Below are positions 2,521 to 55,228 of a stretch of 64,000 nt of DNA, in pieces. The translations under genes were made by a program, and so were the position numbers. The number at the start of each line of letters is the position of its first letter. The first letter of the stretch is position 1. Below the pieces are notes generated by a model. The model saw nothing but the letters and a program-made list of their open reading frames with translations, made no database searches and had not been told where the DNA came from. The stretch covers positions 22,593-86,592 of the forward strand of contig JAFCDZ010000002.1 of assembly GCA_017609405.1 (NCBI GenBank). The letters run 5' to 3'. This DNA is from Candidatus Pacearchaeota archaeon. Its GTDB lineage: Archaea > Nanobdellota > Nanobdellia > Pacearchaeales > GW2011-AR1.

Positions 2521-2521
2521 T

Positions 2522-8775: not shown

Positions 8776-9813
8776 TTATGATAATTTCTTTTTATCTATG
8801 ATATCTCTAAGACCATCAATTCCTGAAGGATAAATAATTAGTTTTGGTCTCTTTTTTTCTATTTTTTTGATTATTTTCCATGTCAGAATTGAGTCCTCTA
8901 TTTTTGGGAAAACGCTTTTATTTCCTGAAAAGAAGTTTTCAAATACTGCGATATATGGATTTTTTTTAGTTTCAAGGTTTATTTTTTTATTATCAATTTT
9001 TATATAACTTATTTTTTTATTAAATGCTTTTCCTGTTTCAAAAATAATTTTTCTATTATCAGCTAAAAATTCTATGTAGACATAGGTTTCAGTTTTTGTT
9101 TTTTCCCCTAATTCTTTTTCATATTCTTTATATCGACCTTTCATAAATTTGAGGATCTTTACTTGCTTTATATTCTTTAATGAAGGCTCTAATTTAAACA
9201 GCATATTCAAAAAATGGCTCTGAACCATATCTTTCAAAGCACCAACAGAATCATAATAACTTATTCTTCCCTCTAGTTTAACTTTTTCTAATGATACTAT
9301 CTCTAATTTCTTGAAATCTTTTTTTCTTATTTTTAGAAATGGCTCTTTGAATAAATAGTGGTCTGAAAGAAATGTTTTATCATAGATTGAATATTTTTTT
9401 AGAATTTTTAATAATCTTTTAGCATGCCTTAGGTTTTTTCCAAAAGGTTTTTCAACAAGAATTCTAAGTTTGATTCCTTTTTTTGATAACTCTCCTAGTT
9501 CAATAAAAATTTTCTTTAGTAGGTTTGGAGGAAGTGCTATATAAAAATAATTTATTTCTCTTTTATCAAATAAATCAAAACAGGATTCACAGAAGTTATA
9601 GTTATTAAGAATTATCTTATGATAGTTTAACTTTTTTTTGAAACTTTTTTTACATTTGCCTGGCTGACAAACAAAATTTTGATAATCTTTTGAATTAAAA
9701 TCTCTTCTTCCTAAAGCAATTATTTCTACAGGTTCTTTTATTTGTTGAAGTGCAGAGATTATCTTTCGTCTTACTAAGTCTCCTGTTGAACCAAATATGA
9801 AAAGTTTTTTCAT
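8776..9813 (-). CDS. short glucose-6-phosphate dehydrogenase-like protein (345 aa)
   Basis: Carries the G6PD signatures FGSTGDLVRRKI (NADP-binding GxxGDLxxxK), VEKPFG and SDHYLFKE (compare the RIDHYLGKE active site). It is clearly shorter than canonical G6PD. Confidence 0.65.
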   Translation of the reverse strand: MKKLFIFGSTGDLVRRKIISALQQIKEPVEIIALGRRDFNSKDYQNFVCQPGKCKKSFKKKLNYHKIILNNYNFCESCFDLFDKREINYFYIALPPNLLKKIFIELGELSKKGIKLRILVEKPFGKNLRHAKRLLKILKKYSIYDKTFLSDHYLFKEPFLKIRKKDFKKLEIVSLEKVKLEGRISYYDSVGALKDMVQSHFLNMLFKLEPSLKNIKQVKILKFMKGRYKEYEKELGEKTKTETYVYIEFLADNRKIIFETGKAFNKKISYIKIDNKKINLETKKNPYIAVFENFFSGNKSVFPKIEDSILTWKIIKKIEKKRPKLIIYPSGIDGLRDIIDKKKLS

Positions 9814-30894: not shown

Positions 30895-31524
30895 ATGTCT
30901 TTTTATACTACAAAATATTTAAATAATTCGAGGATATCTAAACTTATGGAGCCCTTATTTTATTTTTTTGGAATTAGAAGAAAGGAAAAGATGTTTATAC
31001 TAAATGATCCAATAATAATTGATAACTCTCATTTATATGATTTAGATGTATATGCTTTAGGAGAATTATTTGAAGAAAAATCATTAAAATTGAAGGATTT
31101 GGTTGAAGAACTTGGTAAAGAGAGAGGAATTTTATTTGGGGTTGCAAAGAATTCTGAAAGAATAACAGAGTTTTTAAAATTTGGAAAATTTCTTTCTCCA
31201 GAGATTATAGAAGAGAATTTTAGTATCTATTTCCTAAAGGATGAAAAAAGTATATTGTTTAAGATTAATAAAATCTATCATAGTTGGAAAGAACTAAAAA
31301 AAGATATTTGGAAAATTTTAGAGCCATTAAATATTTTTTCAAAGGAAGAATTTAGAATATCTACAAAAGATTGGGAAGATTCTGAACATAATCCTGAAGC
31401 TTTCTCATTTGAAACTAAAAAGTTCAAACTGTGCATTGGAAAGTTTTATTACTCCTTCATATACATCAAACCTAAAAATTATAATCAATTAAAAAATAAA
31501 ATAAAAGGATTGTATAAAAAATAG
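30895..31524 (+). CDS. hypothetical protein
   Basis: 209-aa ORF with an uncertain start (alternative ATG at 30946). No family recognised. Confidence 0.45.
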   Translation: MSFYTTKYLNNSRISKLMEPLFYFFGIRRKEKMFILNDPIIIDNSHLYDLDVYALGELFEEKSLKLKDLVEELGKERGILFGVAKNSERITEFLKFGKFLSPEIIEENFSIYFLKDEKSILFKINKIYHSWKELKKDIWKILEPLNIFSKEEFRISTKDWEDSEHNPEAFSFETKKFKLCIGKFYYSFIYIKPKNYNQLKNKIKGLYKK

Positions 31525-31638: not shown

Positions 31639-31647
31639 TTTATAAAA
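31639..31647 (+). promoter_or_regulatory. TATA-box-like element upstream of the small ORF at 31668
   Basis: tttataaaa preceded by a purine-rich stretch (BRE-like). It is centred about 25 nt upstream of ATG 31668, which fits a leaderless or short-leader archaeal transcript. Confidence 0.35.
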
Positions 31648-31667
31648 AAGATAGACCATATACTTAA

Positions 31668-31766
31668 ATGGAAACAAATGAAAAATATGAAGAACCAGAA
31701 ATCGCAAAGTTCCCTGTATCAGGAGAAGAAGGGAAAATTGCAGAATTTTGGATTGAATCAGATTAA
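31668..31766 (+). CDS. candidate 32-aa precursor peptide METNEKYEEPEIAKFPVSGEEGKIAEFWIESD
   Basis: Not in the ORF track because it is under 60 aa. It lies directly upstream of the PqqD-like and rSAM/SPASM genes. The codon-position signal favours this frame: 26/32 codons end in A/T and 15/32 start with G, whereas in the overlapping track frame only 14/30 codons end in A/T. Confidence 0.45.
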   Translation: METNEKYEEPEIAKFPVSGEEGKIAEFWIESD

Positions 31767-31992
31767 AAGGCCAAAGAGGTTCTTTTTTAGAAAAGAAGAA
31801 CAGGGTTACATAGTTTTTGATAGCTTGAGTTCTCAGATTTTTTTTACAAATAAGACCGCAAAAGAAATAATATCTTTCTTTGATTCTGGATTAACAAAAA
31901 AAGAGATCATTGACAGTATTTCTAAAAAATATAAAATTTCTTCACAGAAAGCTTCAAAAGGGATAAATAAAATTTTAAGGGAAATAGAATGA
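31753..31992 (+). CDS. PqqD-family peptide-binding protein (RiPP recognition element-like)
   Basis: KRFFFRKEEQGYIVFDSLSSQIFFTNKTAKEIISFFDSGLTKKEIIDSISKKY matches the PqqD beta-strand plus winged-helix pattern. The start is uncertain: TTG 31753 is preferred here, the track start is ATG 31678. The gene overlaps the rSAM gene start by 4 nt. Confidence 0.65.
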   Translation: MNQIKRPKRFFFRKEEQGYIVFDSLSSQIFFTNKTAKEIISFFDSGLTKKEIIDSISKKYKISSQKASKGINKILREIE

Positions 31993-32999
31993 ATACTTTT
32001 TCTGCACCAATTTATATGGGGATTGATCTAACTGAACGATGCAATCTTAGATGCATTCATTGTCGCGTTTCAACATCTACAAAAAAGACTAACGAAATTT
32101 CACTTAAGAAATTAAGAGAATTAATAGATACTTTATCAAAAATGAAGGTTATCCAGATAATCTATTCTGGGGGAGAACCTTTTTTAAGGAAAGATATTTT
32201 TGAAATTTTATCTTACTCTGTAAAAAAAGGAATACCCGATCTAATTGTAGTTACAAATGGTCTATTACTGAATGACGAAAAGATATCTAAATTAAAGAAA
32301 ACGGGTATGAAGAAGATAACAATTAGTTTGGATGGTTTAGAAGAATCGCATGATATAATTAGGGGCAAGGGTACATTTAAAAGAACTTTGGATATAATTA
32401 AGAGGTTGGTAAAAGAAGGATTTGAAGTTAAAGTTACAATGACATTAAATAAACTAAACAAAAATGATGTTCTCCAATTATCTGTTTTATTAAATATGAT
32501 TGGTGTAAAAAGAATTAATGTTGGGAATTTAATGCCTTGTGGAAGAGGGAAAGACTTATGGGATCAATCGTTAGACTTTAAGGAGAAATATGAATTGTTC
32601 AATAAAATAAAAAAAGTTAATAATAAATATGGAGAGAATTTCATAAATTTTGAGTCTTCTTTTTTATCAGAACCGAGACTTTCTAAATCAGAACAAAAAA
32701 TTGCTTCCTTTTTAGGTTGTAGGGGAGGAAGAACTTATTGTGCGATTCTTGCTAATGGAGATGTTGTTGCCTGTAAAATGCTCCCCCATGTTGTTGCTGG
32801 GAATATTTACAAAACGAATTTTTCTAAGATTTGGAAAGATGATAAAAATTGGAAAATTTGGAGAGAGGGTAAATTACCCAAAAAATGCCGTCTTTGCAAA
32901 TATGGGGAGGCTTGTAGAGGGGGCTGTAAAGCTATTAGCTTTTACAAATATGGGAGATTTGATGTTCCAGATCCAAGATGTATCGGGCCCTTCACTTAA
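31989..32999 (+). CDS. radical SAM enzyme with a C-terminal SPASM domain
   Basis: CNLRCIHC (CxxxCxxC), GGEPFL, and a C-terminal auxiliary-cluster pattern GCRGG..C(x12)C ... CRLCKYGEACRGGC ... C. Confidence 0.85.
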   Translation: MNTFSAPIYMGIDLTERCNLRCIHCRVSTSTKKTNEISLKKLRELIDTLSKMKVIQIIYSGGEPFLRKDIFEILSYSVKKGIPDLIVVTNGLLLNDEKISKLKKTGMKKITISLDGLEESHDIIRGKGTFKRTLDIIKRLVKEGFEVKVTMTLNKLNKNDVLQLSVLLNMIGVKRINVGNLMPCGRGKDLWDQSLDFKEKYELFNKIKKVNNKYGENFINFESSFLSEPRLSKSEQKIASFLGCRGGRTYCAILANGDVVACKMLPHVVAGNIYKTNFSKIWKDDKNWKIWREGKLPKKCRLCKYGEACRGGCKAISFYKYGRFDVPDPRCIGPFT

Positions 33000-33855
33000 A
33001 CGGCTTCACAAAATTTTCATTAAAATATAAAGAGTAATACCTATGAAGACCTTGGCATTTTTCTCTCTTTTTACACTCCGAACATTTTTTTGGAAAATAT
33101 CGCCCTTCCAATCCGGTTAATATCTTTCCTTGTTTGATCAACCAAACATCCCAATTTACATTTTCAGCTCTTTTATCATTAATGATGCATAAGGGTATAT
33201 TTTCAAACAAGATTTTTTTATTATTACCAATTTTATTTATTGCTTTTTTTATTTTTCTTAACGAAACCAAATGCTTCTTGGAATAGTTTTTGTGTCCTTT
33301 AATGGGATAAAATCTCGGATAGGAAATTCTAATTTCCTCGATAAAAGGATATTTTTCTTCGAAGAAATTAATTGTTTTATACAGAGATCTATAATTATAT
33401 CTAGTAATCACCGTGTTTGTTGATATTTTAACCTTACTTCTATATTTTCTTAATAATTCCATATTTTTTAACAATTTCTCAAAATTTTTTGATTGTGTTA
33501 TTTTCTCATAAGAATTTTTATCATGCGAGTGAAATGATATTTTTAATTCATTTAACCCTACTTTAATAATCTTTCTAAGTAGTTTTTCATTTAAAAAAAT
33601 TAGGTTAGTCTCAATTAAAGTATACTTTTGATTTGCTTTTGCAAACTTTATAATCTCAGATATATCTTTCCTAAGTAAAACTTCCCCTCCTGAAAGAATC
33701 AATTTTCTGAAAGGTTTAGATAATTTTATGTCTTTTTTGATTTCATTTATGGTTGGATTTGGATGAGGGTGTTTTTTAACAGAACAAAAAACACAATTAT
33801 GGGGGCATTCAGTTGTAACGTGAATTTCTGCTTCTTTATTTATCATTTTCTTCAA
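32992..33855 (-). CDS. radical SAM enzyme (second, non-SPASM type)
   Basis: CPHNCVFC near the N-terminus, SGGEVLL, and a short C-terminal CSECKKREKC motif. 287 aa. Confidence 0.75.
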   Translation of the reverse strand: MKKMINKEAEIHVTTECPHNCVFCSVKKHPHPNPTINEIKKDIKLSKPFRKLILSGGEVLLRKDISEIIKFAKANQKYTLIETNLIFLNEKLLRKIIKVGLNELKISFHSHDKNSYEKITQSKNFEKLLKNMELLRKYRSKVKISTNTVITRYNYRSLYKTINFFEEKYPFIEEIRISYPRFYPIKGHKNYSKKHLVSLRKIKKAINKIGNNKKILFENIPLCIINDKRAENVNWDVWLIKQGKILTGLEGRYFPKKCSECKKREKCQGLHRYYSLYFNENFVKPFK

Positions 33856-34858
33856 ATATTCTTATATAACTCTCTACAGTGATTTTTTCAATTTCTTCTT
33901 TTGTGTGCATTTTTATAAATTTAATGATTTTATCTAAAGGTACTTTAAAATTTTCATGGTCTATTTTTAAAAACAATTCTTTTGGAATTTCTAACGGAAG
34001 ATTAAGTTCTTTTTTTAAAGAATCAAAGGAATGAAATAATCCCCGACTATATACCTTAAACCAATCTTTTCTGGAAAAATTCTTTGTTTTTAAGATAGTT
34101 TCATTTACTTTTTTTTCAATGATCTTATAGACTTTTTTCAATTCAATGTCTTTGATTAAACGACCATCAATTTCAACGTAAGAGGCTACTTTCTTAGGAG
34201 ATTGAAATAAATGATTAAAAAAATCTAAATCAATCTCTCCCCTAATCTCTTCAACGATTTTTATTTTTTTGAAAGGAAATTCTTCTGTTAAGTTAAGTGA
34301 AATAGGATTAAGATTAAAAAACTCTTTAATGAATATCCTCTTACTCCCTTTTTCATAAACCCCATGAAACTCATGCCCTAATCTCATCATTGTAGGGTAG
34401 AGTATCTCCAAATAAAACAATAACAATGCAGATAATTTGTTGCTTATTATTAGATTGTTCTCATTTGAGTTTAGTTTGTCAATTTCAAAAGAATATTTTT
34501 TTAGCCGATTATTTTCATCACAAAAAACATCTTCTCTATAATATCCTATACAGCTTATTAAATCCTTTGCAAGCTCTATTCTTTGATTAAACTTCAAAAC
34601 TTTTGCACTATGAAAGAGAGTAAAGTATTGTGCAATTTTCGAGGGATTTTCGAATAATCTTGCTATCTCTTCAATCGAGTAACCTTTGTCTTTTAATCTT
34701 TTAATTGAAGAATATAACTCTCTAATAAAAAAGCTTCCAACATAATATTCTGCTTCATTAGGGATGAATGGCCATAATGCACTCGCAGTGTCTCCCTTAT
34801 GCAACTTTGACAAATCTCTTCCAATTACTTTACACAACTTTTTAATAGATTTATTCAT
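33836..34858 (-). CDS. hypothetical protein, operon partner of the rSAM and PEP-swivel genes
   Basis: 340-aa ORF whose ends overlap both neighbours (translational coupling). No family recognised by eye. Confidence 0.5.
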   Translation of the reverse strand: MNKSIKKLCKVIGRDLSKLHKGDTASALWPFIPNEAEYYVGSFFIRELYSSIKRLKDKGYSIEEIARLFENPSKIAQYFTLFHSAKVLKFNQRIELAKDLISCIGYYREDVFCDENNRLKKYSFEIDKLNSNENNLIISNKLSALLLFYLEILYPTMMRLGHEFHGVYEKGSKRIFIKEFFNLNPISLNLTEEFPFKKIKIVEEIRGEIDLDFFNHLFQSPKKVASYVEIDGRLIKDIELKKVYKIIEKKVNETILKTKNFSRKDWFKVYSRGLFHSFDSLKKELNLPLEIPKELFLKIDHENFKVPLDKIIKFIKMHTKEEIEKITVESYIRIFEENDK

Positions 34859-35186
34859 TTTCTAAAATAGTTACTTTGTTGTTAGTAGCATCCACCTCAA
34901 CGAGCATCCCTTCTTTTAACTTTGATGAAATGCCTTCAACACCCAATATACAAGGTTTATTCATTTCTCTGCTGACAATAGCTAGATGACATAATGAACC
35001 CCCCCTCTCACTTATAATGGCAGATGCTTTTATAAATGCTAAGGAAAACAATGGAGAGTTATTTGTTGTTACAACTATATCCCCCTCTTTTACCCTTTCA
35101 ATATCTTCTACTGAATCCACTATTTTTATTTTTCCGATATATCTTCCTGGATTAGCTACAACCCCCCTAAATGATTTTAATTCCAT
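34851..35186 (-). CDS. stand-alone PEP-utilising-enzyme mobile (swivelling phosphohistidine) domain protein
   Basis: 111 aa. GVVANPGRYIGKIKIV..GDIVVTTNNSP......AIISERGGSLCHLAIVSREMNKPCILGV matches the PEP-utiliser mobile domain, including the phospho-acceptor His. Confidence 0.75.
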   Translation of the reverse strand: MELKSFRGVVANPGRYIGKIKIVDSVEDIERVKEGDIVVTTNNSPLFSLAFIKASAIISERGGSLCHLAIVSREMNKPCILGVEGISSKLKEGMLVEVDATNNKVTILENE

Positions 35187-36823
35187 TTTTCTTTAGCAAC
35201 CATTACTTCTATTAAAACAGGATGCTTTTCTTTAAGACTTTTTAATCCTTTATTAATTTGCTTTTTTATTTCACTTTTATTTGAAATCTTGTAATACCTT
35301 ATATTAAAACTTTCAGCTAATTTATCAAATGAGGGATTAGTAAACTCTGTCATAAATGATTTTCCGTACTTTTTTATCTGAGAATGGTATATTGGTCCAA
35401 GAATGCCGTTGTTAAGGACTATTGCCATTATTGGAATTTTATAATTAGATGCTGTCATTAATTCCATTGCAGTCATTTGAAATCCCCCATCCCCTTGGAT
35501 TGAAACTACGACTCTATCTTTATTTCCCATTTTACTTCCGATAGCCTCTCCTAGAGAACATCCTATTGGTGCAAAACCAGTACATACAATCTGCGTTCTC
35601 GGTTTGTAAATTTTGAAATATCTCTGAACCCATGCAATAGACTCTGTGCATACTATTGAATCTTTTGGTAATATTTTTCTTAATTCAGCAATAAAAGTTT
35701 GAGGTTTTAAAGGTGTAGAATTCGCTTTCATTTCAGGATAATTAAAATAACCTTTAGATCTATATTTCTTTATTAAACCAGAATAATCCTTCTTTTGTTT
35801 TTTAATTGTCAACTCTAATTTTGAAATAATCTCTGAAATATCTCCTTGAAGAAGATAATCTATCTTATAATTCTTAGTTATGTCCCTTGATTTTATATCT
35901 ATTCTAACAATTTTAGTGTTATGAAAATTAAAACTCCAATTATTGGTAGAAAATTGACTTAAACTAGAGCCAATGACAATTAAAAAATCCACACCAGATT
36001 TAATATACTCGTTTGCTGATTTTTGTCCTGTCAAACCAATTGTCCCAAGTGAAAGTTTATGGTCATCTGAAATTATACCCCTCCCTTTTAGAGTTGTTAA
36101 TACTGGAATTTTTGATTTATTAATAAATTTCAAGATAGCTTCTCGATGTTTAATAGCCCCTCCCCCAAGCAATATTGCCGGCTTTTTAGATTTTTGCAAT
36201 TCTAAAGAAATTTTTTTAATTTTTTCAATCGGAATCTCTCTTTTTAATCTAATCTTATTTTCTTTTTCAAATAATTCAAAAAGATTATCCTCAAAATCAA
36301 TTTCCTTTTGCATTACATCGGCGGGAATTTCTAAATATGCTGGACTAGGACGATGATCGTTTAAGGTAAAATAAACCTTCTTTAATATTTGGATAATCTT
36401 CTTTTCGTCTTCAATAACTTCAGCGTAACCGGTAATTTCCTTAAATATTTTTAATTGACTTATAGTTCTTCCAATCCCTGTTGACTCCTGAAAACTTGCC
36501 CTTCCTTTCAATGAACTCGAAACTTGGCCGGATAGAACTAATATTGGCTGAGAATCGTAATATGCTGCAGCTATACTTGTTACTAAATTTGTTGCGCCTG
36601 GACCGACACTCCCGAAACAGGAACACGGCAGTCCAGTAGACTTAGAATATCCACTAGCCATAAAGCCAGCACCCTCTTCATGTTTTGCTAAAATTAATTT
36701 TATCTTCTTACTTTTATTAATTTCATCTAAAAGACTCATGTTTGAACCCGGAACCCCAAAGCAATATTTTATTCCTAAAAATTTCATAAATTTGACAATA
36801 ATCTGATTAATTGTTTTTCTCAT
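35177..36823 (-). CDS. thiamine-diphosphate-dependent enzyme, acetolactate synthase large-subunit-like
   Basis: N-terminal Pyr domain (GVPGS..HEEGAGFMA..GPGATN), a central domain, and the C-terminal ThDP motif GDGGFQM...NNG. 548 aa. Confidence 0.8.
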   Translation of the reverse strand: MRKTINQIIVKFMKFLGIKYCFGVPGSNMSLLDEINKSKKIKLILAKHEEGAGFMASGYSKSTGLPCSCFGSVGPGATNLVTSIAAAYYDSQPILVLSGQVSSSLKGRASFQESTGIGRTISQLKIFKEITGYAEVIEDEKKIIQILKKVYFTLNDHRPSPAYLEIPADVMQKEIDFEDNLFELFEKENKIRLKREIPIEKIKKISLELQKSKKPAILLGGGAIKHREAILKFINKSKIPVLTTLKGRGIISDDHKLSLGTIGLTGQKSANEYIKSGVDFLIVIGSSLSQFSTNNWSFNFHNTKIVRIDIKSRDITKNYKIDYLLQGDISEIISKLELTIKKQKKDYSGLIKKYRSKGYFNYPEMKANSTPLKPQTFIAELRKILPKDSIVCTESIAWVQRYFKIYKPRTQIVCTGFAPIGCSLGEAIGSKMGNKDRVVVSIQGDGGFQMTAMELMTASNYKIPIMAIVLNNGILGPIYHSQIKKYGKSFMTEFTNPSFDKLAESFNIRYYKISNKSEIKKQINKGLKSLKEKHPVLIEVMVAKEKWN

Positions 36824-36948: not shown

Positions 36949-37593
36949 ATGTTCATAAATGAGGTGCTTTTGAACATTGAAAAATATTATAATGCTTTGA
37001 CACTTCTTTTTCCACAAGAGCTCAAAGCTTTTTTAGAAATTTTCTTATGGTCTTTTCTAGTCTTTTTATATGTCCTCTTGATTTGGAAATTCTATCACTC
37101 TATCTCTTGTAGAGATATAATAACTCTTAATCTTCAGCAATACAATCGTTCCGAGCATCCAGTTATTGCAAAACTTTTTGGAGCATTGCTTTATTTTATT
37201 GAGTATATTTTAATTCTACCTTTTTTAGTTTTTATTTGGTTCTCGCTTTTTACTTTATTTTTGATTTTGCTTGGAGAAAATATGGAACTTTCATCAATCA
37301 TTTTTCTATCAATTATAATAATTGCATCAATAAGGATGTCTGCATACCATAATCAAGCTATGGCAAAAGAAATGGCAAAAATTCTTCCTTTTTCTTTGCT
37401 TGCAGTAATGGCAACAAACCCAAAAATATTTCTAAATTTCAACTCAGTAATAACTCAAATTTCAAAAATTCCTCTGTTTCTAAAAAATGTGTGGGTATAT
37501 TGGGTATTTATAATTTTATTAGAGTTACTATTAAGGGTTGTTTATACAATAAAAATAATTTCATTTAAGAGAGATTCTAATTCTCAACAATAG
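36949..37593 (+). CDS. hypothetical polytopic membrane protein
   Basis: 214 aa with about 5 hydrophobic helices. Confidence 0.5.
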   Translation: MFINEVLLNIEKYYNALTLLFPQELKAFLEIFLWSFLVFLYVLLIWKFYHSISCRDIITLNLQQYNRSEHPVIAKLFGALLYFIEYILILPFLVFIWFSLFTLFLILLGENMELSSIIFLSIIIIASIRMSAYHNQAMAKEMAKILPFSLLAVMATNPKIFLNFNSVITQISKIPLFLKNVWVYWVFIILLELLLRVVYTIKIISFKRDSNSQQ

Positions 37594-38041
37594 ATTCAAG
37601 GTTTTTCTTTTTTGTTACTCCCATAATTCTTGATATTGGTCCTGAAGCAAGCCATCTAACAGGATAAATTATCATGTCAGAATAAACTGAAGCATATTCA
37701 GGAGATATTCCTTTTTCTATCATTTTATTAGCAATATAACCTCTTAAAAATAAAAGTCCAGGAGTAACTAAGGAATATCCAACACTCATTTTTACTTGAT
37801 TTAATATAAATTTTTTAGAGTCAAAATTCTCACCCCCTCCATATAAATCTTTATTGTTTTTTGCATGTAATCTTAAGAATATTCCAACATCAGATAGATA
37901 ACTTGCTACTGTTGATACTGCTGAATTTAATCCACCAGCAACACCGTAATTGCTTAATAAATTTGCAGACGATGCTCCTGCTAAAAGACCACCCATCCCA
38001 GAGATAACTGAATCTCTAATAATTCCAAGTTCTTTTTTCAT
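37577..38041 (-). CDS. hypothetical protein (Gly/Ala-rich N-terminus)
   Basis: 154-aa ORF with no recognised family. Confidence 0.45.
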   Translation of the reverse strand: MKKELGIIRDSVISGMGGLLAGASSANLLSNYGVAGGLNSAVSTVASYLSDVGIFLRLHAKNNKDLYGGGENFDSKKFILNQVKMSVGYSLVTPGLLFLRGYIANKMIEKGISPEYASVYSDMIIYPVRWLASGPISRIMGVTKKKNLESIVEN

Positions 38042-49591: not shown

Positions 49592-51829
49592 CTATTCAAC
49601 AATTTTAAACGAGATTCCTGGATTTTCATTTACACCAAAGATATATATCTCTGTGTTATTGTATAAAAGAGTAAAATAATTTTCATTGAAAAATACATCT
49701 CTTAAATCTTCTTTTCTTATTACTATTACTGCCGAATCTATTCTACTTTCTCTTTCAATCCACTCTTTTGAGAATCTTTTTTCACAGATTCCTTTAATCC
49801 CTAAAACACAGGGTCCATAAAATTTTGTATACATTTCATTATTTAGTATATCTTTTATTTTTGAATAAGTTCTGAGAGAGTCCTCTTGTGAGAAAATAGA
49901 TGAAACAAGCCTGTTCATAAACTTCTTTTCTTCACTTTGCCCAACAGGTTTAATATATGGCATTATTTTTAATCCCGATATTGACGCTAATTGATAATAT
50001 GTTAAAATATCAATAGAAGATTTTGCAGGAGATATTATGATTGTATCTTTTGTTAAATGCTTACTCATCCAATTTCCAGCATTATAACAAGAAGGTTCAA
50101 CCGTACTATAATAACCATTTTCATTCTCCCACCACTTCATATAGGAAAAACTTGGAATAATACTAAACATAATGATTGTGGAAAACACCATAATTAAGGT
50201 TATCTTCTTAAAATAATCAAGATAACTTTTCTTTTTTGTAGGAAATAGGTAAAGAACTTCTATTGATTTTCCAATAAATAATGACATAAACACTATTAAA
50301 ATTCCAAAAGACCTATACACCCCAATATCTAATAAAAATAAACTTATTCCAGTTAAAACAATAAGAACCCCCAATAAAGGTCTAATCTCTCTTTTTGAAT
50401 CAATTAGATAATATAACAGACCAAAGAAAAAAAACAACCAGAAAAAAAGATTAATATAAACATTTCCAAAAGAATTATCCAAAACTCTTTTTTTTGTAAA
50501 AATACCAACAAGGTCTTTTATTCTTTCATTAAATGTTTGATAAAGAACAGAGTTAGTATTTGTATGAACTAAAAAATTAGTTATCTTTGCGATATTTAAG
50601 ATACCAAAAAATTGTAAAAATGCTAATAAGAATAATGTCATAAATAAAATAACAAGAAGAATGTCTCCTATTTTTGGAAATCTGTCTTCAAGAAATATAA
50701 AGAATAAATAAACTAAAAGGATAACACTAACTAAAAGACCCATTAAAATATGATTAAAGAATAAAATACTAATAATTAAAATTATAATAAAATAATACTC
50801 TTTCTTGTTTCCTTTTATAAAAAAAGTTGATATAAGAATTAAAAAAACAATAATTGAAACTATCAAATAATGAATCGGGCCAATTGAAAAAAGATTAAAA
50901 ATTTTGTTAGACATTATTCCAAAAAGTAAAAGAATAATTGTGCCAAAAACAGAGAAGGATTTAATAATATCTTCCCTATTTTCTTTTTCACATACTTCTT
51001 TTTTAAAATATCTATTTATCATACCAAATATAAATGGGGTTGAAATAAAGATTATTGATTTTGGAGCAACTAAGAATGGTGAACCAATCTCTCTTGTTGA
51101 AAGGATTATTAAGAAGCAAAAAGAGATAAGAAAAGATATCTCTCTTTTTATTCTAAAGCCATTTAAGAAATAAAAGATGCCTGTTAAAAAAAGAAATGGG
51201 AATAAAAAGTGAGCATAGAACCAGCCAAGGGAGAAAACATCAAGATTATATAAATAAGAATTAAGAGCAATAAAAATTGAAATACTATCAATATAAGCAA
51301 AACTTCTGAAAATCTGTGAATAATTTAAAACATAATTTGCTAAATGGGCGTGGGTGTATAAAAAATCCCAAGTTACCCACAACGGGAATTTATTAAATCT
51401 CAAAACAAATAACGAAACACCAAAGGATAGAATTAACAAAATAAAAAAAGTAATCAAAGAATTTCGCGATACCTCAATGAAATTTTCCTCTTTTTTCAAA
51501 AATTTATAAAAGTAATAAACAAAATAAAATCCAAAAATAATAACTGAAAGATTAAATAAATTAAACAGGTTAATAGAATACAAAGATATAGCAAGACCTA
51601 TTATTAATAAAAATCCGAGAGACCATGAAATAAAAAAATAACCAATAAAATCAATTTTCTTTTTGATTTTTCCGAGGTTCTCCAAAAAAATATTTCCCAT
51701 CAAATAGGGCAAGATAATAAAAAAGGGAATAGCAAAAATTGCTTTTAAAATAATTGAAGATAAGAAAAAACTAATCATAATACTTATCAGAGTATATAAA
51801 AAAAATATTTTCTCTAATTTTATTCTCAT
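49592..51829 (-). CDS. large polytopic membrane protein, GT-C-like (possible divergent oligosaccharyl/glycosyl transferase)
   Basis: At least 13 hydrophobic helices followed by a soluble C-terminal domain that begins KWWENENGYY. The gene lies inside a glycosyltransferase cluster. The family assignment is tentative. Confidence 0.4.
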   Translation of the reverse strand: MRIKLEKIFFLYTLISIMISFFLSSIILKAIFAIPFFIILPYLMGNIFLENLGKIKKKIDFIGYFFISWSLGFLLIIGLAISLYSINLFNLFNLSVIIFGFYFVYYFYKFLKKEENFIEVSRNSLITFFILLILSFGVSLFVLRFNKFPLWVTWDFLYTHAHLANYVLNYSQIFRSFAYIDSISIFIALNSYLYNLDVFSLGWFYAHFLFPFLFLTGIFYFLNGFRIKREISFLISFCFLIILSTREIGSPFLVAPKSIIFISTPFIFGMINRYFKKEVCEKENREDIIKSFSVFGTIILLLFGIMSNKIFNLFSIGPIHYLIVSIIVFLILISTFFIKGNKKEYYFIIILIISILFFNHILMGLLVSVILLVYLFFIFLEDRFPKIGDILLVILFMTLFLLAFLQFFGILNIAKITNFLVHTNTNSVLYQTFNERIKDLVGIFTKKRVLDNSFGNVYINLFFWLFFFFGLLYYLIDSKREIRPLLGVLIVLTGISLFLLDIGVYRSFGILIVFMSLFIGKSIEVLYLFPTKKKSYLDYFKKITLIMVFSTIIMFSIIPSFSYMKWWENENGYYSTVEPSCYNAGNWMSKHLTKDTIIISPAKSSIDILTYYQLASISGLKIMPYIKPVGQSEEKKFMNRLVSSIFSQEDSLRTYSKIKDILNNEMYTKFYGPCVLGIKGICEKRFSKEWIERESRIDSAVIVIRKEDLRDVFFNENYFTLLYNNTEIYIFGVNENPGISFKIVE

Positions 51830-51830
51830 T

Positions 51831-53066
51831 TTATTTCCCCTCTTTTTTGTTATGTAATGATAATTTTTTATAAATCTTTTCAATTTTTTCAATTATCTTT
51901 TTTTCATTAAACTTTTTTACAAAATCCCTATAAGCATTTTTTCCCATTTTTTTTAGAATTTTTTTATTTTTCATGAGCTTATTTAATATCTCCTTTAATT
52001 GTCTTTTATCTCCAACATTAAATAAATATCCATTATAACCCTCTTTTATTAATTCTGGATTCCCTCCAATATTTGTTGCAACTACAGGGATTTCGCTTCT
52101 AAAATTCTCTAAAATTGACATCGAGCAGTTTTCAAAATAAATTGAAGGGACAATTCCAACATCCATTTCTTTTCTAAATTCTTCTAATTTTTCATTTTTT
52201 ATATTTCCGTAAAAAATTATTCTTTTGTCATTTTCAGCAATTTTTTTAAAATAATCTTTTATCTTCTTTCGCCCTTCTCCAAAAAAATGTATTCTTATGT
52301 TATTATCTTTTATTTCTTTGACTGCTCTTATTATGGTTTGTCCACCTTTGTGTAATTGATATCCTCCTGTAAAAATAATATCAAAAGTTTTTTTCTTCTC
52401 ATCACTTTTTTTATTTTTTTTATCCTCTAAAAAATTATATATGACTTCTTTTTTTGAATTTTTGAAAAACCCTTCTTTTTCATAAATATCCTTTATTGCT
52501 TTTGTAGGAAAAATAACCACTTCTGGTTTTGCTATCATCTTGTTTATTTTTGAATATGCTTTTGATATCATCTTGTAAACAAAACTATTCATTAAGGGAT
52601 ATCTTATTCCAGCAATTTCATCTAATTCAGGTAAATTATTCATTGGGAAAATCAGGTTTATGCTATGTATTGTTACAATAATTGGTATATGTGCTCTTTT
52701 CACTGCAGAATAAACAGAGAGAGATAAATAAGGAATTTCATGTATATGGACCACATCTGGTTTTTCTTTTTCTAATATCTTTTTTATTTTAAAATAGGAG
52801 TCCGGATTCCAAAAATTTAAAACAAAGGTTCTTAATCTTCCCATTAAAGAAATCTTATTTCTTCTTAAAAAAGGAATCCATACGCCAAAAGGATAAATGC
52901 GATATATTTTTATTCCTTGGCTATCTTTAAAAAAGCTTTTTCCAGTTGTTATTATTATAACCTCATGCCCCCTTCTTTTTAGAGACTCTGCAAGTATCTT
53001 AGTATATATAGTTGAGCCACCAATTTCATAAGGAGGATATGCAAAATTAATCAGGCAGATTTTCAT
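51831..53066 (-). CDS. GT4-family glycosyltransferase
   Basis: The N-terminal MKICLINFAYPPYEIGGS pattern and a C-terminal GT-B block (PSIYFENCSMSILENFRSEIPVVATNIGGNPELI). Confidence 0.8.
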   Translation of the reverse strand: MKICLINFAYPPYEIGGSTIYTKILAESLKRRGHEVIIITTGKSFFKDSQGIKIYRIYPFGVWIPFLRRNKISLMGRLRTFVLNFWNPDSYFKIKKILEKEKPDVVHIHEIPYLSLSVYSAVKRAHIPIIVTIHSINLIFPMNNLPELDEIAGIRYPLMNSFVYKMISKAYSKINKMIAKPEVVIFPTKAIKDIYEKEGFFKNSKKEVIYNFLEDKKNKKSDEKKKTFDIIFTGGYQLHKGGQTIIRAVKEIKDNNIRIHFFGEGRKKIKDYFKKIAENDKRIIFYGNIKNEKLEEFRKEMDVGIVPSIYFENCSMSILENFRSEIPVVATNIGGNPELIKEGYNGYLFNVGDKRQLKEILNKLMKNKKILKKMGKNAYRDFVKKFNEKKIIEKIEKIYKKLSLHNKKEGK

Positions 53067-53067
53067 T

Positions 53068-53526
53068 TTAAAATATCTCTCCAAAATAAATCCTTCTTTT
53101 TTTATCTAATTTCTCTAATTCATAAAAAAGAGAGAGTATTAAAACAAATAATATAACAAAAAAAAGGATTATCTCAATTGAAAAAGAAATTTTATAAATT
53201 AAGCAAGAAGTTATAATCACTGCTAAAGTAATTATGCTTATAATTAAAACTTTTAATTTTTCTTCTCTTGTTAGGATAATTCTTTTTATATCAAAATAAT
53301 CAAAATCTTCATCAAAATAATCTAATTCTCTTTTTTTAATTTTTCTTTTTTCTAAAAAAAGCGAGAAAATAAATAAACTTAAACTTGTGATAAACAACAA
53401 GACAGGATTAAAATAATTCCTCATTGAAGGGAAAAATAAAGATATAAAAAAAAGAAATATAAAAAAACTAATCAAATATGCTGAGAGGTCTTTTATTAGA
53501 TATTCAATAAATTTTATCTTTTTCAT
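53068..53526 (-). CDS. hypothetical membrane protein
   Basis: Four hydrophobic helices. The ATG at 53526 abuts the upstream stop. Confidence 0.45.
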   Translation of the reverse strand: MKKIKFIEYLIKDLSAYLISFFIFLFFISLFFPSMRNYFNPVLLFITSLSLFIFSLFLEKRKIKKRELDYFDEDFDYFDIKRIILTREEKLKVLIISIITLAVIITSCLIYKISFSIEIILFFVILFVLILSLFYELEKLDKKRRIYFGEIF

Positions 53527-53527
53527 T

Positions 53528-54931
53528 TTAAAAAGATATCTTCGATGGCCCCTTATTATCATATATTCTTAGAATATCATACTTAAAGAATTCTTCAATC
53601 TTACCTATATTTCCAATAAGTTTTAAATTCTTTTCAGAACTATTTATCTGTTTGACAAATTTGATCTCTTTTATTATCTTGCATTTATTATTTTCACACT
53701 CTTCTATCTTTTTATATTGATCTTTTTTTACACTATCTACTTTTGTTTTATTATCTTCATAGATAAAAATAATGTATTTATAATTTTCAAAAAATTTAAT
53801 TCCACAAGCAATAGGTTTTATTGTTTTTGATTCATCCTGTTTATGATAAAAAGGGAATATCTCTATGAATCTTTTATTTTTATAGACTTTTACAGAAACC
53901 CCTGCTTTAATAGATAAATCATCTTTATTTGTCCAAGAAACAATCATTTCATAACCTTTATTTTTGTTATCTTCTGTTAGTTCTGAGATTATTATGTCTT
54001 TTCTTGCATTCTTATAATCTAACCAACTTTCGTTATGTTCCTTTTTAGTATCTTCAGACAATACTCTTTTCCATTTACCATCAATATTAAAAATCAATTC
54101 CCACGGAGAAATATAAAAAATTTCTCTGTTTTCATTGAATATATGTATTCCATCAGTATTTTTTCTTGATGTTGCTATCTCAAAAAAATAATCTTCATCA
54201 TCTTTTTTTTCATCTATCTTTATGAAGATTTTTTTTGTTTTGTTGTATAATCCATAAACTCTTGTTAGATAAATTAATGAATTTGAATCTGTATATATTT
54301 TATTAAAGGAGCCAAAGATATCTGCAGAGTAGTTATCTGATTCTAATGAGATATAATCTCTTGTGTTTTGAGGTATTTTTATCCTATCTAAATTTATAAA
54401 TCCTTTTCTATCATTCAAGTTTATTATTCTTCCATTTTGAAGAACTAATTTATCAAATTTCTCTGGCCAGTTCTTTTTGTTTACCAAACCTAAGCTATGC
54501 TCTTCTATTTTTTCTGGTCTTGAAAAATTTCCATCAATTTCATAGGTTATTAAACTTCCTTCTAATGAATAAACTTCTCTTACAAATGAGGGGTCTTTTG
54601 TTTTATTTGAGTATTCAATTATTAATTTATTCATTTCAACATTTATTTTTTTGTTATCTTCACCACTAAACCAAGATTTTTTTCCAGAAGGGCTATAAAT
54701 TAATTTTTCCACCCCATTGTATTTTAACAAGGATTGCCATGGGCTTATTACAAACAATTTTTGATTATTAACATAGACATTAATGTATGGCTCCTTAGTA
54801 ATTTTATCAACTTCAATAACCATATCTCTATTTTTTATAACATAAGGAGTATTCCTTGGACTGAGAGCAAATAAAATAACTAAAATCAGAAACAATACAA
54901 AACTCACCTCTCTTATTTTATTTTTATTCAT
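53528..54931 (-). CDS. hypothetical secreted/anchored protein
   Basis: 467 aa with an N-terminal hydrophobic anchor. No family recognised. Confidence 0.5.
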   Translation of the reverse strand: MNKNKIREVSFVLFLILVILFALSPRNTPYVIKNRDMVIEVDKITKEPYINVYVNNQKLFVISPWQSLLKYNGVEKLIYSPSGKKSWFSGEDNKKINVEMNKLIIEYSNKTKDPSFVREVYSLEGSLITYEIDGNFSRPEKIEEHSLGLVNKKNWPEKFDKLVLQNGRIINLNDRKGFINLDRIKIPQNTRDYISLESDNYSADIFGSFNKIYTDSNSLIYLTRVYGLYNKTKKIFIKIDEKKDDEDYFFEIATSRKNTDGIHIFNENREIFYISPWELIFNIDGKWKRVLSEDTKKEHNESWLDYKNARKDIIISELTEDNKNKGYEMIVSWTNKDDLSIKAGVSVKVYKNKRFIEIFPFYHKQDESKTIKPIACGIKFFENYKYIIFIYEDNKTKVDSVKKDQYKKIEECENNKCKIIKEIKFVKQINSSEKNLKLIGNIGKIEEFFKYDILRIYDNKGPSKISF

Positions 54932-55228
54932 ATCTTAATAAGTTTCTTCTTGTTTTTAAGTTTAACTTTTAGCTAAGTTCTATTGAAAATTTTCGTGTTA
55001 ATTGTATAAATATTCTAAGGTAGGCTCAGTACTTAGAGTTATCCCAATAATCTTTATGACTACAGTGTTCAGTGGGCATAGTTTGGATAACAATTTTAAG
55101 AGAATTTTTTATAGTGTTTCTTATTCTGTTCAACCTAACACTAAAACATCTATAAACCAAACCAGAAATGTTGAATTTATCTTTTTAGGCCTAATTAAAT
55201 ATTTAAATAACTTAATTTTTTTTAAGTA

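Follow-up and report, generated by a model that had tools for sequence, protein, structure and literature searches.

Seven genes that span about 5.2 kb of the window (the whole stretch of 64,000 nucleotides that we analysed) are probably a conserved and so far undescribed archaeal system for a radical-SAM-modified ribosomal peptide. The most likely reading is a new pathway in which a radical SAM (rSAM) enzyme modifies the peptide, with a predicted Trp-centred cross-link and further tailoring. The genes themselves, their conservation, their linkage and the families to which they belong are direct observations from the loci compared. The preliminary description of this DNA had proposed a three-gene maturation cassette, and the cassette is there: a small ORF, a gene of the PqqD/RRE type and the rSAM gene follow each other on the forward strand. 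The proposal was nevertheless incomplete, since the seven genes are one conserved unit and the genes for the peptide, the PqqD-family protein and the first rSAM enzyme are one arm of it.

Organisation of the locus

The forward-strand arm begins with the precursor peptide gene (31668-31766), a 32-codon ORF conserved upstream of PqqD and rSAM genes. It is followed by the gene of a PqqD-family RiPP recognition element (RRE; 31753-31992, about 79 aa, with an uncertain start; the longest ORF begins at 31678) and by rSAM1 (31989-32999, 336 aa), a predicted radical SAM/SPASM peptide maturase according to its Pfam matches and Cys motifs. The 4-nt overlap of the last two genes reported earlier is the ATGA at 31989-31992, in which the PqqD stop and the rSAM1 start overlap. 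On the reverse strand lies a convergent operon, the first gene of which encodes a ThDP enzyme of the acetolactate synthase/pyruvate oxidase superfamily (35177-36823, 548 aa, three TPP_enzyme domains). The genes that follow encode a swivel protein, i.e., a stand-alone PEP-utilizers phospho-histidine domain (34851-35186, 111 aa, PF00391), the orphan protein unk340 (33836-34858, 340 aa, no family match) and rSAM2, a second radical SAM enzyme (32992-33846, 284 aa, Pfam Radical_SAM). The gene of unk340 is translationally coupled to the swivel gene upstream and to rSAM2 downstream, and the 3' end of rSAM2 overlaps rSAM1 convergently by 8 nt. No protease, exporter or immunity gene was found within the seven-gene block. 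The window has a GC content of 29.5% and encodes archaeal RpoB, aIF5B, thermosome and Elp3. Recent horizontal transfer of the cluster was rejected, its GC content being that of its surroundings.

A TATA-like box (TTTATAAA, 31639-31646, forward strand) lies about 25-30 nt 5' of the peptide ATG. Most clade-A loci have a T/A-rich box of the TTTAWA or TTTTAAA type at about -31 to -23, and their upstream DNA outside this box does not align between loci. The position of the box would imply a leaderless or near-leaderless transcript beginning at the peptide gene. In a genome this rich in AT, the box is only suggestive of a promoter of the peptide gene.

Conservation of the seven genes as a unit

The seven-gene block is kept between unrelated flanks in the window and in loci L001, L003, L004, L006, L012 and L016. 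The identities of the seven proteins drop together, locus by locus, and the families of rSAM2, unk340 and rSAM1 are similarly small (22, 25 and about 20 proteins). The two halves of the block are on opposite strands in most loci. The ThDP gene and rSAM1 share a strand in L014, where the former overlaps the stop of the latter and is translationally coupled to it. In L025, which belongs to a distant sister clade (identities of 37% for rSAM1, 45% for rSAM2, 35% for the ThDP enzyme and 30% for unk340), all seven genes are co-directional in a single operon, with the peptide gene between the rSAM2 and PqqD genes and the ThDP gene directly 3' of rSAM1 on the same strand.

These patterns bear on whether the three-gene cassette could be a self-contained RiPP system (e.g., of the cyclophane type), with the convergent operon as a separate metabolic module alongside, an explanation that we regard as unlikely. 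Such independence would fit the opposite strands of the two halves at most loci and the resemblance of rSAM2 to the nucleotide-acting viperin and MoaA, and sets of a precursor, an rSAM enzyme and a putative RRE have indeed been studied as units (WgkABC, WprABC; PMC11851443). It would also fit L022 and L023, where the swivel/unk340 pair stands alone beside ribosomal-protein genes and is not within 9 kb of any peptide, rSAM or ThDP gene, so that at least this module exists independently. The single operon of L025, in which the peptide gene is embedded, argues against a separate cassette, as do the coupling of the ThDP gene to rSAM1 in L014, the conservation of the block between variable flanks and the like sizes of the orphan families of rSAM2, unk340 and rSAM1.

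The small ORF and its peptide

Short ORFs are frequent in this AT-rich DNA: the 7 kb examined contain 56 ORFs that are 25 aa or longer, so a 32-codon ORF by itself is not beyond chance. We judged the small ORF to be real because of its conservation and of a synonymous bias restricted to its frame. An ORF precedes the PqqD gene in all 12 recovered loci, and the 12 peptide variants, which come from independent contigs (11 loci of clade A and one of clade B) and are all encoded 5' of PqqD and rSAM genes, share an invariant C-terminal motif. In the peptide frame, 329 of the codon pairs that differ are synonymous and 341 non-synonymous; the corresponding counts for the remaining frames are 111/606 and 39/651. 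The core motif occurs once in the window, for a chance expectation of 0. On this comparative reading of the codons, the small ORF is a genuine gene. Among 1.84 billion representatives, phmmer with the peptide as query found two true peptides and a chance match (P0173, a tail-fibre-like repeat protein), and the back-translated core gave six matches among metagenome contigs, five of them true and one by chance (L017).

We consider it highly improbable that the small ORF arose by chance, that the PqqD protein has a longer N-terminus (104 aa) and that rSAM1 acts on a non-peptide substrate, as do the tetrapyrrole enzymes AhbD and NirJ. Apart from the frequency of short ORFs here, this view could appeal to the 104-aa frame, open from 31678, and to the scores of AhbD (184 bits) and NirJ2 (178 bits), which nearly equal that of MftC (191 bits). 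It is contradicted by L004, where the alternative frame does not stay open as far as the PqqD start, and by the substitution pattern, which picks the peptide frame; in L012 and L013, the PqqD gene begins past the peptide stop. The cut-offs of AhbD and NirJ (at least 500) are also widely missed, and tetrapyrrole chemistry does not involve a PqqD partner, which is conserved here.

The peptide of 32 aa (METNEKYEEPEIAKFPVSGEEGKIAEFWIESD) lacks Cys, as the preliminary description had stated, and its homologues are very acidic precursors of 28-41 aa. The leader comprises approximately residues 1-17, with the motif Y7-E-E-P10-E-I, and the core approximately S18-D32, with the invariant K23-I-A-E26-F-W28-I-E30. 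The residues earlier listed for the segment GKIAEFWIESD are there with the exception of Tyr, the only one being in the N-terminal half. No other element of the locus is as conserved as the core consensus [KR]-[IV]-x-E-x-W-[IVT]-E, which is invariant among clade-A loci whose PqqD proteins are 30-63% and rSAM1 proteins 45-76% identical. Its W-[IVT]-E part, an aromatic-X2-X3 motif, is present in 12/12 peptides. In L025, Arg takes the place of Lys, and other variants have Met or Ala at the position of Phe. These substitutions eliminate some of the potential cross-link partners but do not discriminate between those that are left. C-terminal tails are between 1 and 17 residues long, that of L025 having 16. 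Clade-A leaders carry a lasso-like YExPx[IVA]; a YxxP motif is not evident in the leader of the clade-B peptide.

A PqqD-type protein predicted to bind the leader

The PqqD-like region covers the C-terminal 75 aa or so of the ORF ending at 31992. The protein of the window scores 20.9-22.2 bits against Pfam PqqD (PF05402), just below the cut-off of 23.4, and the profile is matched by 9 of the 11 orthologues at E <= 0.01 (best 9.3e-10), those of L003 and L013 having a precomputed match at E <= 1e-5. Among NCBIfam models, WgkC is the best for the window protein (33.7 bits); the lasso PqqD model scores 25.3 and PqqD 13.8. When the family profile was compared with the PDB, the best matches were TbiB1 (5v1u, E 0.006) and TfuB1 (6jx3, E 0.008), with alignments covering 47-63 residues. 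Both are lasso leader-binding proteins. Judging from these profile matches, which bear out the earlier assignment, the middle gene is probably of the RRE/PqqD type and its product a predicted leader binder. In lasso and related RiPPs, YxxP-type leader motifs govern RRE binding (PMC10368454), in line with the section headings of PMC13381572.

The orthologues begin just before an RFFFRKE motif. A 104-aa protein read from 31678 would thus probably be too long, and the gene likely starts at TTG 31753, within the I-E codons of the peptide. In L004, the peptide stop at 5773 is followed by a separate PqqD ATG at 5777, and L012 and L013 likewise have a PqqD ATG after the peptide stop.

The lasso B1 RREs TbiB1 and TfuB1 are the best solved relatives of this PqqD profile, and the clade-A leader resembles the lasso leader motif YxxPxL (PMC10368454). 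In contrast to lasso systems, the cluster has no B2 protease and no lasso cyclase, and an rSAM/SPASM enzyme lies downstream.

The rSAM/SPASM enzyme and known maturases

rSAM1 scores above the Pfam cut-offs for Radical_SAM (PF04055; 106.1 bits, cut-off 29.5) and SPASM (PF13186; 39.4 bits, cut-off 21.5). It has a CX3CX2C motif at Cys18/22/25 and, for a SPASM pattern of the PF13186/TIGR04085 type (CX9-15GX4C ... CX2CX5CX3C ... C), the residues C244-X12-G257-X4-C262, C300-X2-C303-X5-C309-X3-C313 and C331; the CxxxCxxC and full SPASM motifs had been correctly recognised at the outset. Cys18/22/25 are conserved throughout 17 homologues, and all ten Cys (18, 22, 25, 244, 262, 300, 303, 309, 313 and 331) are invariant in both clades and the outgroup. 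In the SPASM subfamily, the seven Cys of this pattern ligate two auxiliary [4Fe-4S] clusters. By sequence, rSAM1 thus belongs to the radical SAM superfamily and the SPASM subfamily, and it is predicted to bind the corresponding clusters.

The best NCBIfam models for rSAM1 are MftC (191.4 bits), AhbD and NirJ2, all below their cut-offs; AhbC scores 157 bits, WgkB 156.8, NirJ1 145, NirJ 137 and PqqE 109, and no curated cut-off is reached among MftC, PqqE, WgkB, AhbD and NirJ. Membership of the heme-pathway SPASM enzymes (AhbD, AhbC, NirJ) was rejected on scores of 137-184 bits for cut-offs of 500-650. rSAM1 lies in a tight clade of 18 proteins, after which the next score falls to 203 bits, and several further matches have a fused PqqD domain (including P0047, P0058, P0088 and P0092). 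It does not group with housekeeping maturases, a possibility that the preliminary description had left open: AhbD and NirJ are far below cut-off, and the outgroup is itself in a peptide cluster. This outgroup, an uncharacterised Methanofastidiosia locus (L015, 34% identity), also has a leader of the KYExPx[LI] type (KYERPTLE), a discrete PqqD protein and an rSAM/SPASM enzyme with the 10 invariant Cys. Its core, however, is Cys-rich (GNGCCSGPD), its cluster includes another SPASM enzyme as well as an ABC transporter, and the ThDP enzyme, swivel protein, unk340 and rSAM2 are missing from it.

On the model of QhpC/QhpD in quinohemoprotein amine dehydrogenase, the peptide might never be set free and might act as a small subunit or scaffold bearing a Trp-based protein-derived cofactor for a partner enzyme, although we find this very unlikely. 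SPASM maturases of enzyme subunits are known (QhpD, anSME), the invariant Trp of the core is flanked by invariant Glu, and the block is without a protease or exporter, all of which such a role would accommodate. It is hard to reconcile with a precursor of classical leader/core appearance (28-41 aa, a lasso-like leader and a discrete RRE), with a C-terminal tail of 1 to 17 residues and with the lack of a dehydrogenase-type partner.

Among systems that yield modified peptides, mycofactocin (MftA/MftB/MftC) has the same kinds of genes: its short precursor is accompanied by a discrete chaperone of the PqqD family and by an rSAM/SPASM enzyme. The best model, MftC, aligns with rSAM1 over its full length, and the mycofactocin cluster also includes extra enzymes that do not look RiPP-related and lacks an exporter. 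However, MftD, MftE and MftF are absent here, and their places are taken by the ThDP enzyme, the swivel protein, unk340 and rSAM2. MftC acts on the C-terminal Gly-Val-Tyr of MftA, whereas the peptide of the window ends in WIESD and the tails vary. Mycofactocin membership was rejected on the MftC score (cut-off 265), the peptide C-terminus and the neighbour genes, and MftC-type C-terminal chemistry was ruled out because the peptide C-terminus is not fixed.

The PQQ system (PqqA/PqqD/PqqE) shares the succession of peptide, PqqD and rSAM/SPASM enzyme. The invariant Glu near an invariant aromatic residue recalls the Glu-Tyr cross-link made by PqqE, as indicated in the reference list of PMC11851443, but the aromatic residue is Trp here and Tyr in PqqA, and the spacing is E-x-W or W-x-E against E-x3-Y. 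PQQ membership was rejected: PqqE scores far below its cut-off of 381 and PqqD below its cut-off of 46, the core is without Tyr and the block has no PqqB or PqqC.

Cyclophane rSAM RiPPs (triceptides/3-CyFEs, WgkABC, WprABC, StrABC) also combine a precursor, an rSAM enzyme and a small putative recognition protein. Trp-to-aliphatic cross-links are established for the rSAM enzymes StrB, WgkB and WprB, each encoded beside a precursor and a putative RRE (WgkC is of the PqqD family, WprC is not), and Trp-Lys and Trp-Arg cross-links are known (PMC11851443). In triceptides, the aromatic residue is linked to a Cbeta within an aromatic-X2-X3 motif, the kind of motif that W-[IVT]-E represents (PMC11499958). 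The cluster differs from these systems in its single motif without repeats, its archaeal host and its four extra enzymes. To our knowledge, Glu at X3 is not a characterised triceptide case. WGK/streptide-type membership was rejected on the scores of WgkB (cut-off 650) and WgkC (cut-off 110) and on the K-x4-W spacing, which is not KxxxW; a streptide-type KxxxW link was down-weighted for this spacing and for the replacement of Lys by Arg in L025.

The convergent operon

rSAM2 matches Pfam Radical_SAM (80 bits), with a CX3CX2C at Cys17/21/24 of the 287-aa ORF starting at TTG (32992-33855), i.e., at 14/18/21 of the 284-aa protein starting at ATG. Its C-terminal Cys, including a CX2CX5C, make one auxiliary cluster likely. 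The family comprises about 22 proteins that co-occur with rSAM1 in the loci examined. Weak NCBIfam matches below cut-off were found to the archaeal MoaA (76 bits) and HxsC (74.4 bits). Assignment to HxsC of the His-Xaa-Ser system (HxsB/HxsC) was rejected, since 268 bits are needed and the peptide has no HXS repeats; the alignment is full-length (25-289 of 292). The AF2 model (pLDDT 91) has viperin (TM 0.65) and MoaA (0.63) as nearest PDB folds, and also resembles SuiB and SkfB. Viperin and MoaA act on nucleotides, not on peptides. Viperin-type defence (pVip) was rejected, the PADLOC matches being confined to the rSAM core, with rSAM1 (83 bits) ahead of rSAM2 (62 bits), and the score against viperin_w_prok of NCBIfam being 59 bits for a cut-off of 180. 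Membership of an anti-phage defence system, suggested by the viperin-like rSAM2 and by defence-like flanks at some loci, was rejected because the PADLOC matches are generic to the rSAM core.

The orphan unk340 has no sequence match in Pfam, NCBIfam, PADLOC or the PDB, and a search of 5.8 billion clusters yielded only about 25 homologues. Its AF2 model is of high quality (pLDDT 92.4, pTM 0.91), and Foldseek found no match below E 0.08 in the PDB or BFVD. A diverged PPDK_N ATP-grasp or rifampin-phosphotransferase-like domain, which we considered, is unsupported by sequence matches or by folds in the PDB and BFVD. The swivel gene is invariably paired with unk340, including in L022 and L023; its product scores 71.7 bits against PF00391, and the catalytic-His motif GGSLCHLAIVSRE can be read from its sequence.

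The ThDP enzyme matches Pfam TPP_enzyme_N, _M and _C and has the GDG-X26-NN and catalytic-Glu HE(E)GAG motifs. Its best PDB match is BbmA (8x3x, 281 bits), followed by acetohydroxyacid synthases. It was not accepted as the large subunit of a biosynthetic acetolactate synthase (acolac_lg, 357 bits, cut-off 538). Given the domains and motifs and the missed cut-off, we placed it in the superfamily only.

A proposed pathway

We infer leader binding, a cross-link, its site and roles for the four neighbouring enzymes as follows. The acidic precursor (28-41 aa) would be transcribed from its own promoter, and the discrete PqqD/RRE protein would bind its N-terminal leader (through YExPx[IVA] in clade A) and present rSAM1, the rSAM/SPASM enzyme, with the core [KR]-[IV]-x-E-x-W-[IVT]-E. 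rSAM1 would take a hydrogen atom and most likely cross-link Trp through a carbon-carbon bond, preferably within the three-residue motif W-x-E. E-x-W and [KR]...W are alternative sites, and this choice is a guess among three invariant partners. rSAM2, the ThDP enzyme, the swivel protein and unk340 would tailor the modified peptide or turn it into a smaller product.

It is also conceivable, if rather doubtful, that the seven genes follow the logic of PQQ and mycofactocin and produce a new small molecule or cofactor derived from the peptide. The invariant Glu and Trp of the E-x-W-x-E core would be cross-linked, and these residues would be excised and reworked. The reworking might then involve rSAM2, decarboxylation or carboligation of a keto-acid by the ThDP enzyme and a phospho-His relay with unk340. 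This would be a Trp/Glu-derived cofactor from small-genome archaea of the DPANN type.

Cassettes of a precursor, an RRE and an rSAM/SPASM enzyme are of a known kind, thousands being uncharacterised, and one more of them alone would be modest news. What is unusual here is the Cys-free and exceptionally invariant E-x-W-x-E core, the residence of the cassette in low-GC, DPANN-like archaea (such archaea are thought to lose biosynthetic capacity) and its fixed inheritance together with the orphan unk340, the swivel protein, the ThDP enzyme and rSAM2, which resembles viperin and MoaA. None of the RiPP and peptide-cofactor pathways that we compared has a similar set of enzymes. Should the seven genes cooperate, they would yield either a cross-link of a new class, with tailoring that has no precedent, or a third cofactor derived from a peptide, and seven genes in so short a stretch are small enough for direct testing by heterologous expression.

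Occurrence and literature

The peptide sequence was absent from the literature searched, in which we found no paper combining Pacearchaeota or Woesearchaeota with RiPP and radical SAM terms. The only paper there to bring together DPANN, RiPP, radical SAM and SPASM is a graspetide survey in which DPANN occurs once. Scanning of viral contigs gave no match above 30% identity at full length, identities reaching 35% at most over short N-terminal segments. Scanning genome contigs with rSAM1 gave a single close locus (L008), binned in a Planctomycetaceae MAG and probably misbinned. One of the homologues of unk340 is labelled Pacearchaeota.

A conserved small gene ahead of the PqqD-like and radical SAM genes

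The cassette consists of three plus-strand ORFs: a precursor peptide ORF of 32 codons (31668-31766; METNEKYEEPEIAKFPVSGEEGKIAEFWIESD), a PqqD-like ORF ending at 31992, which resembles PqqD over its last ~75 residues, and a 336-codon ORF (31989-32999) encoding the radical SAM/SPASM enzyme rSAM1. This architecture, proposed in the preliminary description, was borne out, as was the 4-nt overlap of the last two genes, which have an ATGA in common at 31989-31992. rSAM1 scores above the Pfam cut-offs for Radical_SAM (106 bits) and SPASM (39 bits). Its CX3CX2C motif is formed by Cys18/22/25, the SPASM motif is complete (C244-X12-G-X4-C262, C300-X2-C-X5-C-X3-C313, C331), and all ten cysteines are invariant among 17 homologues, outgroup included. 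The window carries archaeal markers (single-subunit RpoB, aIF5B, thermosome, Elp3) and has a GC content of 29.5%; the cluster has the GC content of its surroundings, and one of its proteins has a homologue with the label Pacearchaeota. The host is thus plausibly of the DPANN type.

A 32-codon ORF is not significant by itself, since 56 ORFs of at least 25 aa occur within these 7 kb. The case for a real gene thus comes from comparison with other loci, not from ORF length. We used the DNA around many members of the rSAM1 clade and a metagenome scan with the back-translated core. The clade comprises 18 proteins (45-100% identity, >330 bits), and the next match reaches just 203 bits. In 11/11 distinct loci of clade A (the window and its close relatives), an ORF of 28-37 aa is followed by the PqqD-like gene and then by rSAM1. 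The peptides have the consensus Y-E-x-P-x-[IVA]-x-[KR]-[FL]-P-x-x-G-E-x-[GK]-K-[IV]-[AS]-E-[FM]-W-[IVT]-E-x(1-3). Over 23 aligned codons, the substitutions favour the peptide frame, with 329 synonymous and 341 non-synonymous differing codon pairs, against 111/606 and 39/651 in the two other frames.

The same comparison bears on the start of the PqqD gene. A 104-aa reading that overlaps the peptide gene is open in the window. In locus L004, the peptide stop (5773) is followed by a separate PqqD ATG (5777), and the alternative frame is closed by a stop at 5780; in L012 and L013, the PqqD start likewise lies downstream of the peptide stop. The 104-aa reading is thus artefactual, arising because an overlapping frame happens to be open, and the start in the window is likely TTG 31753. 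The start in L014 is ambiguous: there is an in-frame ATG after the peptide stop, yet the start as called (372) falls within the peptide gene, which ends at 385. Upstream DNA cannot be aligned between loci, apart from a TATA-like box (31639-31646, plus strand, about -31 to -23 from the peptide ATG) found at that distance in most clade-A loci. It would fit a leaderless archaeal transcript, which in such AT-rich DNA is only suggestive.

The PqqD-like protein of the window scores 20.9-22.2 bits on PF05402 (cut-off 23.4), and its best NCBIfam matches (WgkC, 33.7 bits; lasso PqqD, 25.3; HPr-rel-A PqqD, 22.2) are also below cut-off. Nevertheless, 9 of the 11 orthologues match PF05402 (best 9e-10), and a profile of all 11 has as top PDB matches TbiB1 (5v1u) and TfuB1 (6jx3), the leader-binding proteins of lasso peptides. 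The assignment of the middle gene to PqqD is thus firm at the family level. The clade-A leaders have YExPx[IVA]; the motif of lasso leaders is YxxPxL (PMC10368454).

The cassette is half of a seven-gene unit

Converging with rSAM1 is a minus-strand operon of overlapping genes encoding, in transcription order, an acetolactate-synthase-like ThDP enzyme (35177-36823), a PEP-utilizers swivel protein (34851-35186), the orphan 340-aa protein unk340 (33836-34858) and a second radical SAM enzyme, rSAM2 (32992-33846). The rSAM1 and rSAM2 genes overlap by 8 nt at their 3' ends (32992-32999), which leaves no space for terminators between them. Convergent overlaps of 4-8 nt recur in L001 (7007-7014), L004 (7008-7011), L006 (7019-7026) and L013 (1399-1402).

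This block is found amid unrelated flanks in L001, L003, L004, L006, L012 and L016, and is present in L008, whose 5.7-kb contig stops inside the ThDP gene. In L014, rSAM1 and the ThDP gene are on one strand, the ThDP gene lying directly downstream and overlapping rSAM1 by 4 nt. In L025, of the distant sister clade B (identity: rSAM1 37%, rSAM2 45%, ThDP 35%, unk340 30%), the seven genes are all co-directional, in the order rSAM2, peptide, PqqD, rSAM1, ThDP, swivel, unk340. Because the block is kept between varied flanks, and given the L014 overlap and the L025 order, we link cassette and operon. The orphan families are similar in size to the rSAM1 clade (rSAM2 ~22 proteins, unk340 ~25). However, two other archaeal genomes (L022 8682-10020, L023 8679-10038) have the swivel and unk340 genes as a pair on their own, next to ribosomal-protein genes. 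The three genes described initially stand, and are half of a larger conserved unit of seven genes and about 5.2 kb. An SDR gene and a gene for a 394-aa protein without family match are optional accessories; the latter lies after the ThDP gene on the minus strand (L001 11664-12848, L003 10854-12038, L004 10843-12024, L016 5687-6847); the window, L006 and L012 lack it.

rSAM1 groups with peptide maturases

We found no grouping of rSAM1 with housekeeping maturases. Models of tetrapyrrole enzymes give 137-184 bits against cut-offs of 500-650, and its nearest outgroup (L015, Methanofastidiosia, 34% identity) lies in a peptide/PqqD/SPASM cluster; these two observations place it among peptide maturases. 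In L015, a small ORF (2154-2240; M(IY)MKYERPTLEDTEGRVSGNGCCSGPD), whose leader carries KYERPTLE and whose core is GNGCCSGPD, precedes genes for PqqD, two SPASM radical SAM enzymes, a 446-aa unknown protein and an ABC transporter (2330-4660). The leader style is common to the window peptide, but the core differs and contains Cys; the cluster looks like an archaeal RiPP family of its own, as yet uncharacterised.

With a conserved precursor, an RRE-type protein and a peptide-maturase-like rSAM1, the evidence supports the initial interpretation as a putative radical SAM RiPP or peptide-cofactor cluster, conserved as seven genes. No NCBIfam or Pfam model of a named system reaches its cut-off. Of 1.84 billion proteins, two are true representatives of the peptide, and it has no close relative in IMG/VR. 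A 785-aa tail-fibre-like protein (P0173) with repeated ASKIPIAGVSGKLALGWLS units matches it at E 8e-7; we consider this a chance look-alike, which calls for caution in motif searches with this peptide. We found neither the peptide sequence in the literature nor work joining Pacearchaeota or Woesearchaeota with radical SAM RiPPs; the terms DPANN, RiPP, radical SAM and SPASM came together only in a graspetide survey, which mentions DPANN once.

Core motif and candidate chemistry

When the clade-B peptide (MTDYDKLYIKDLPITDNSKSRIYEAWIESDDSDDEIIEINK) is added, the invariant core is [KR]-[IV]-x-E-x-W-[IVT]-E. Met or Ala can stand in for Phe, and Arg for Lys, so that a Trp, two Glu and a basic position stay constant across loci. 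The C-terminus of the peptide varies, which speaks against C-terminal chemistry of the MftC type. StrB, WgkB and WprB, whose genes adjoin their own precursor and putative RRE genes, form bonds between Trp and aliphatic carbons of Lys or Arg (PMC11851443), and triceptide synthases join an aromatic ring to Cbeta of the second residue after it (PMC11499958). Our first-ranked candidate would be a W-x-E cyclophane, followed by a PqqE-like Glu-to-aromatic link on E-x-W and, third, by a possible [KR]-to-W macrocycle. The seven-gene block lacks protease, exporter and immunity genes, yet has cofactor-type enzymes, and we thus lean weakly towards a metabolite derived from the peptide over a toxin for secretion.

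In the ThDP enzyme, all three domains are present, along with the GDG-X26-NN and catalytic-Glu motifs. The protein reaches 357 bits on the acetolactate-synthase model, short of the cut-off of 538, and BbmA (8x3x) is its best match among solved structures. The swivel protein retains the phospho-His motif GGSLCHLAIVSRE, and the gene for this stand-alone protein precedes and overlaps unk340 in every locus read. The predicted structure of unk340 (pLDDT 92, pTM 0.91) has no structural neighbour by Foldseek in PDB or BFVD. The pair may be a new phospho-His-dependent two-protein enzyme. For rSAM2, the predicted structure (pLDDT 91) is nearest to viperin (TM 0.65) and MoaA (0.63), with SuiB and SkfB close behind; at the sequence level, rSAM2 shows a weak but full-length alignment with HxsC, which is the non-SPASM member of a paired radical SAM peptide system.

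Genomic surroundings

The ORFs directly flanking the cluster (30895-31524 and 36949-37593, plus strand; 37577-38041, minus strand) match nothing in Pfam, NCBIfam or PADLOC, and their place beside it is not conserved elsewhere. Other loci have neighbours resembling defence islands or toxin-antitoxin systems (L025 5451-10040, L001 4648-5600, L004 122-718, L006 11028-12061), including MazG-like proteins, an SLFN-type helicase, a DNA methylase and Polbeta/NTP_transf_2 nucleotidyltransferases, which hints that the cluster is located in variable genome regions. L008 (CAZBZG010000295.1, 5.7 kb; rSAM1 76% identical), a contig with the archaeal cluster, sits in a MAG labelled uncultured Planctomycetaceae, probably through a binning error. 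Elsewhere in the window, a 345-aa G6PD-like ORF (8776-9813, minus strand) matches the N-terminal NAD domain but just a 40-residue piece of the C-terminal one, and is a glucose-6-phosphate dehydrogenase that is either truncated or strongly diverged. A minus-strand run of GT4 and GT2 glycosyltransferases (49592-59313), interspersed with 766-aa and 467-aa ORFs without family match, is probably a cell-surface glycan locus.
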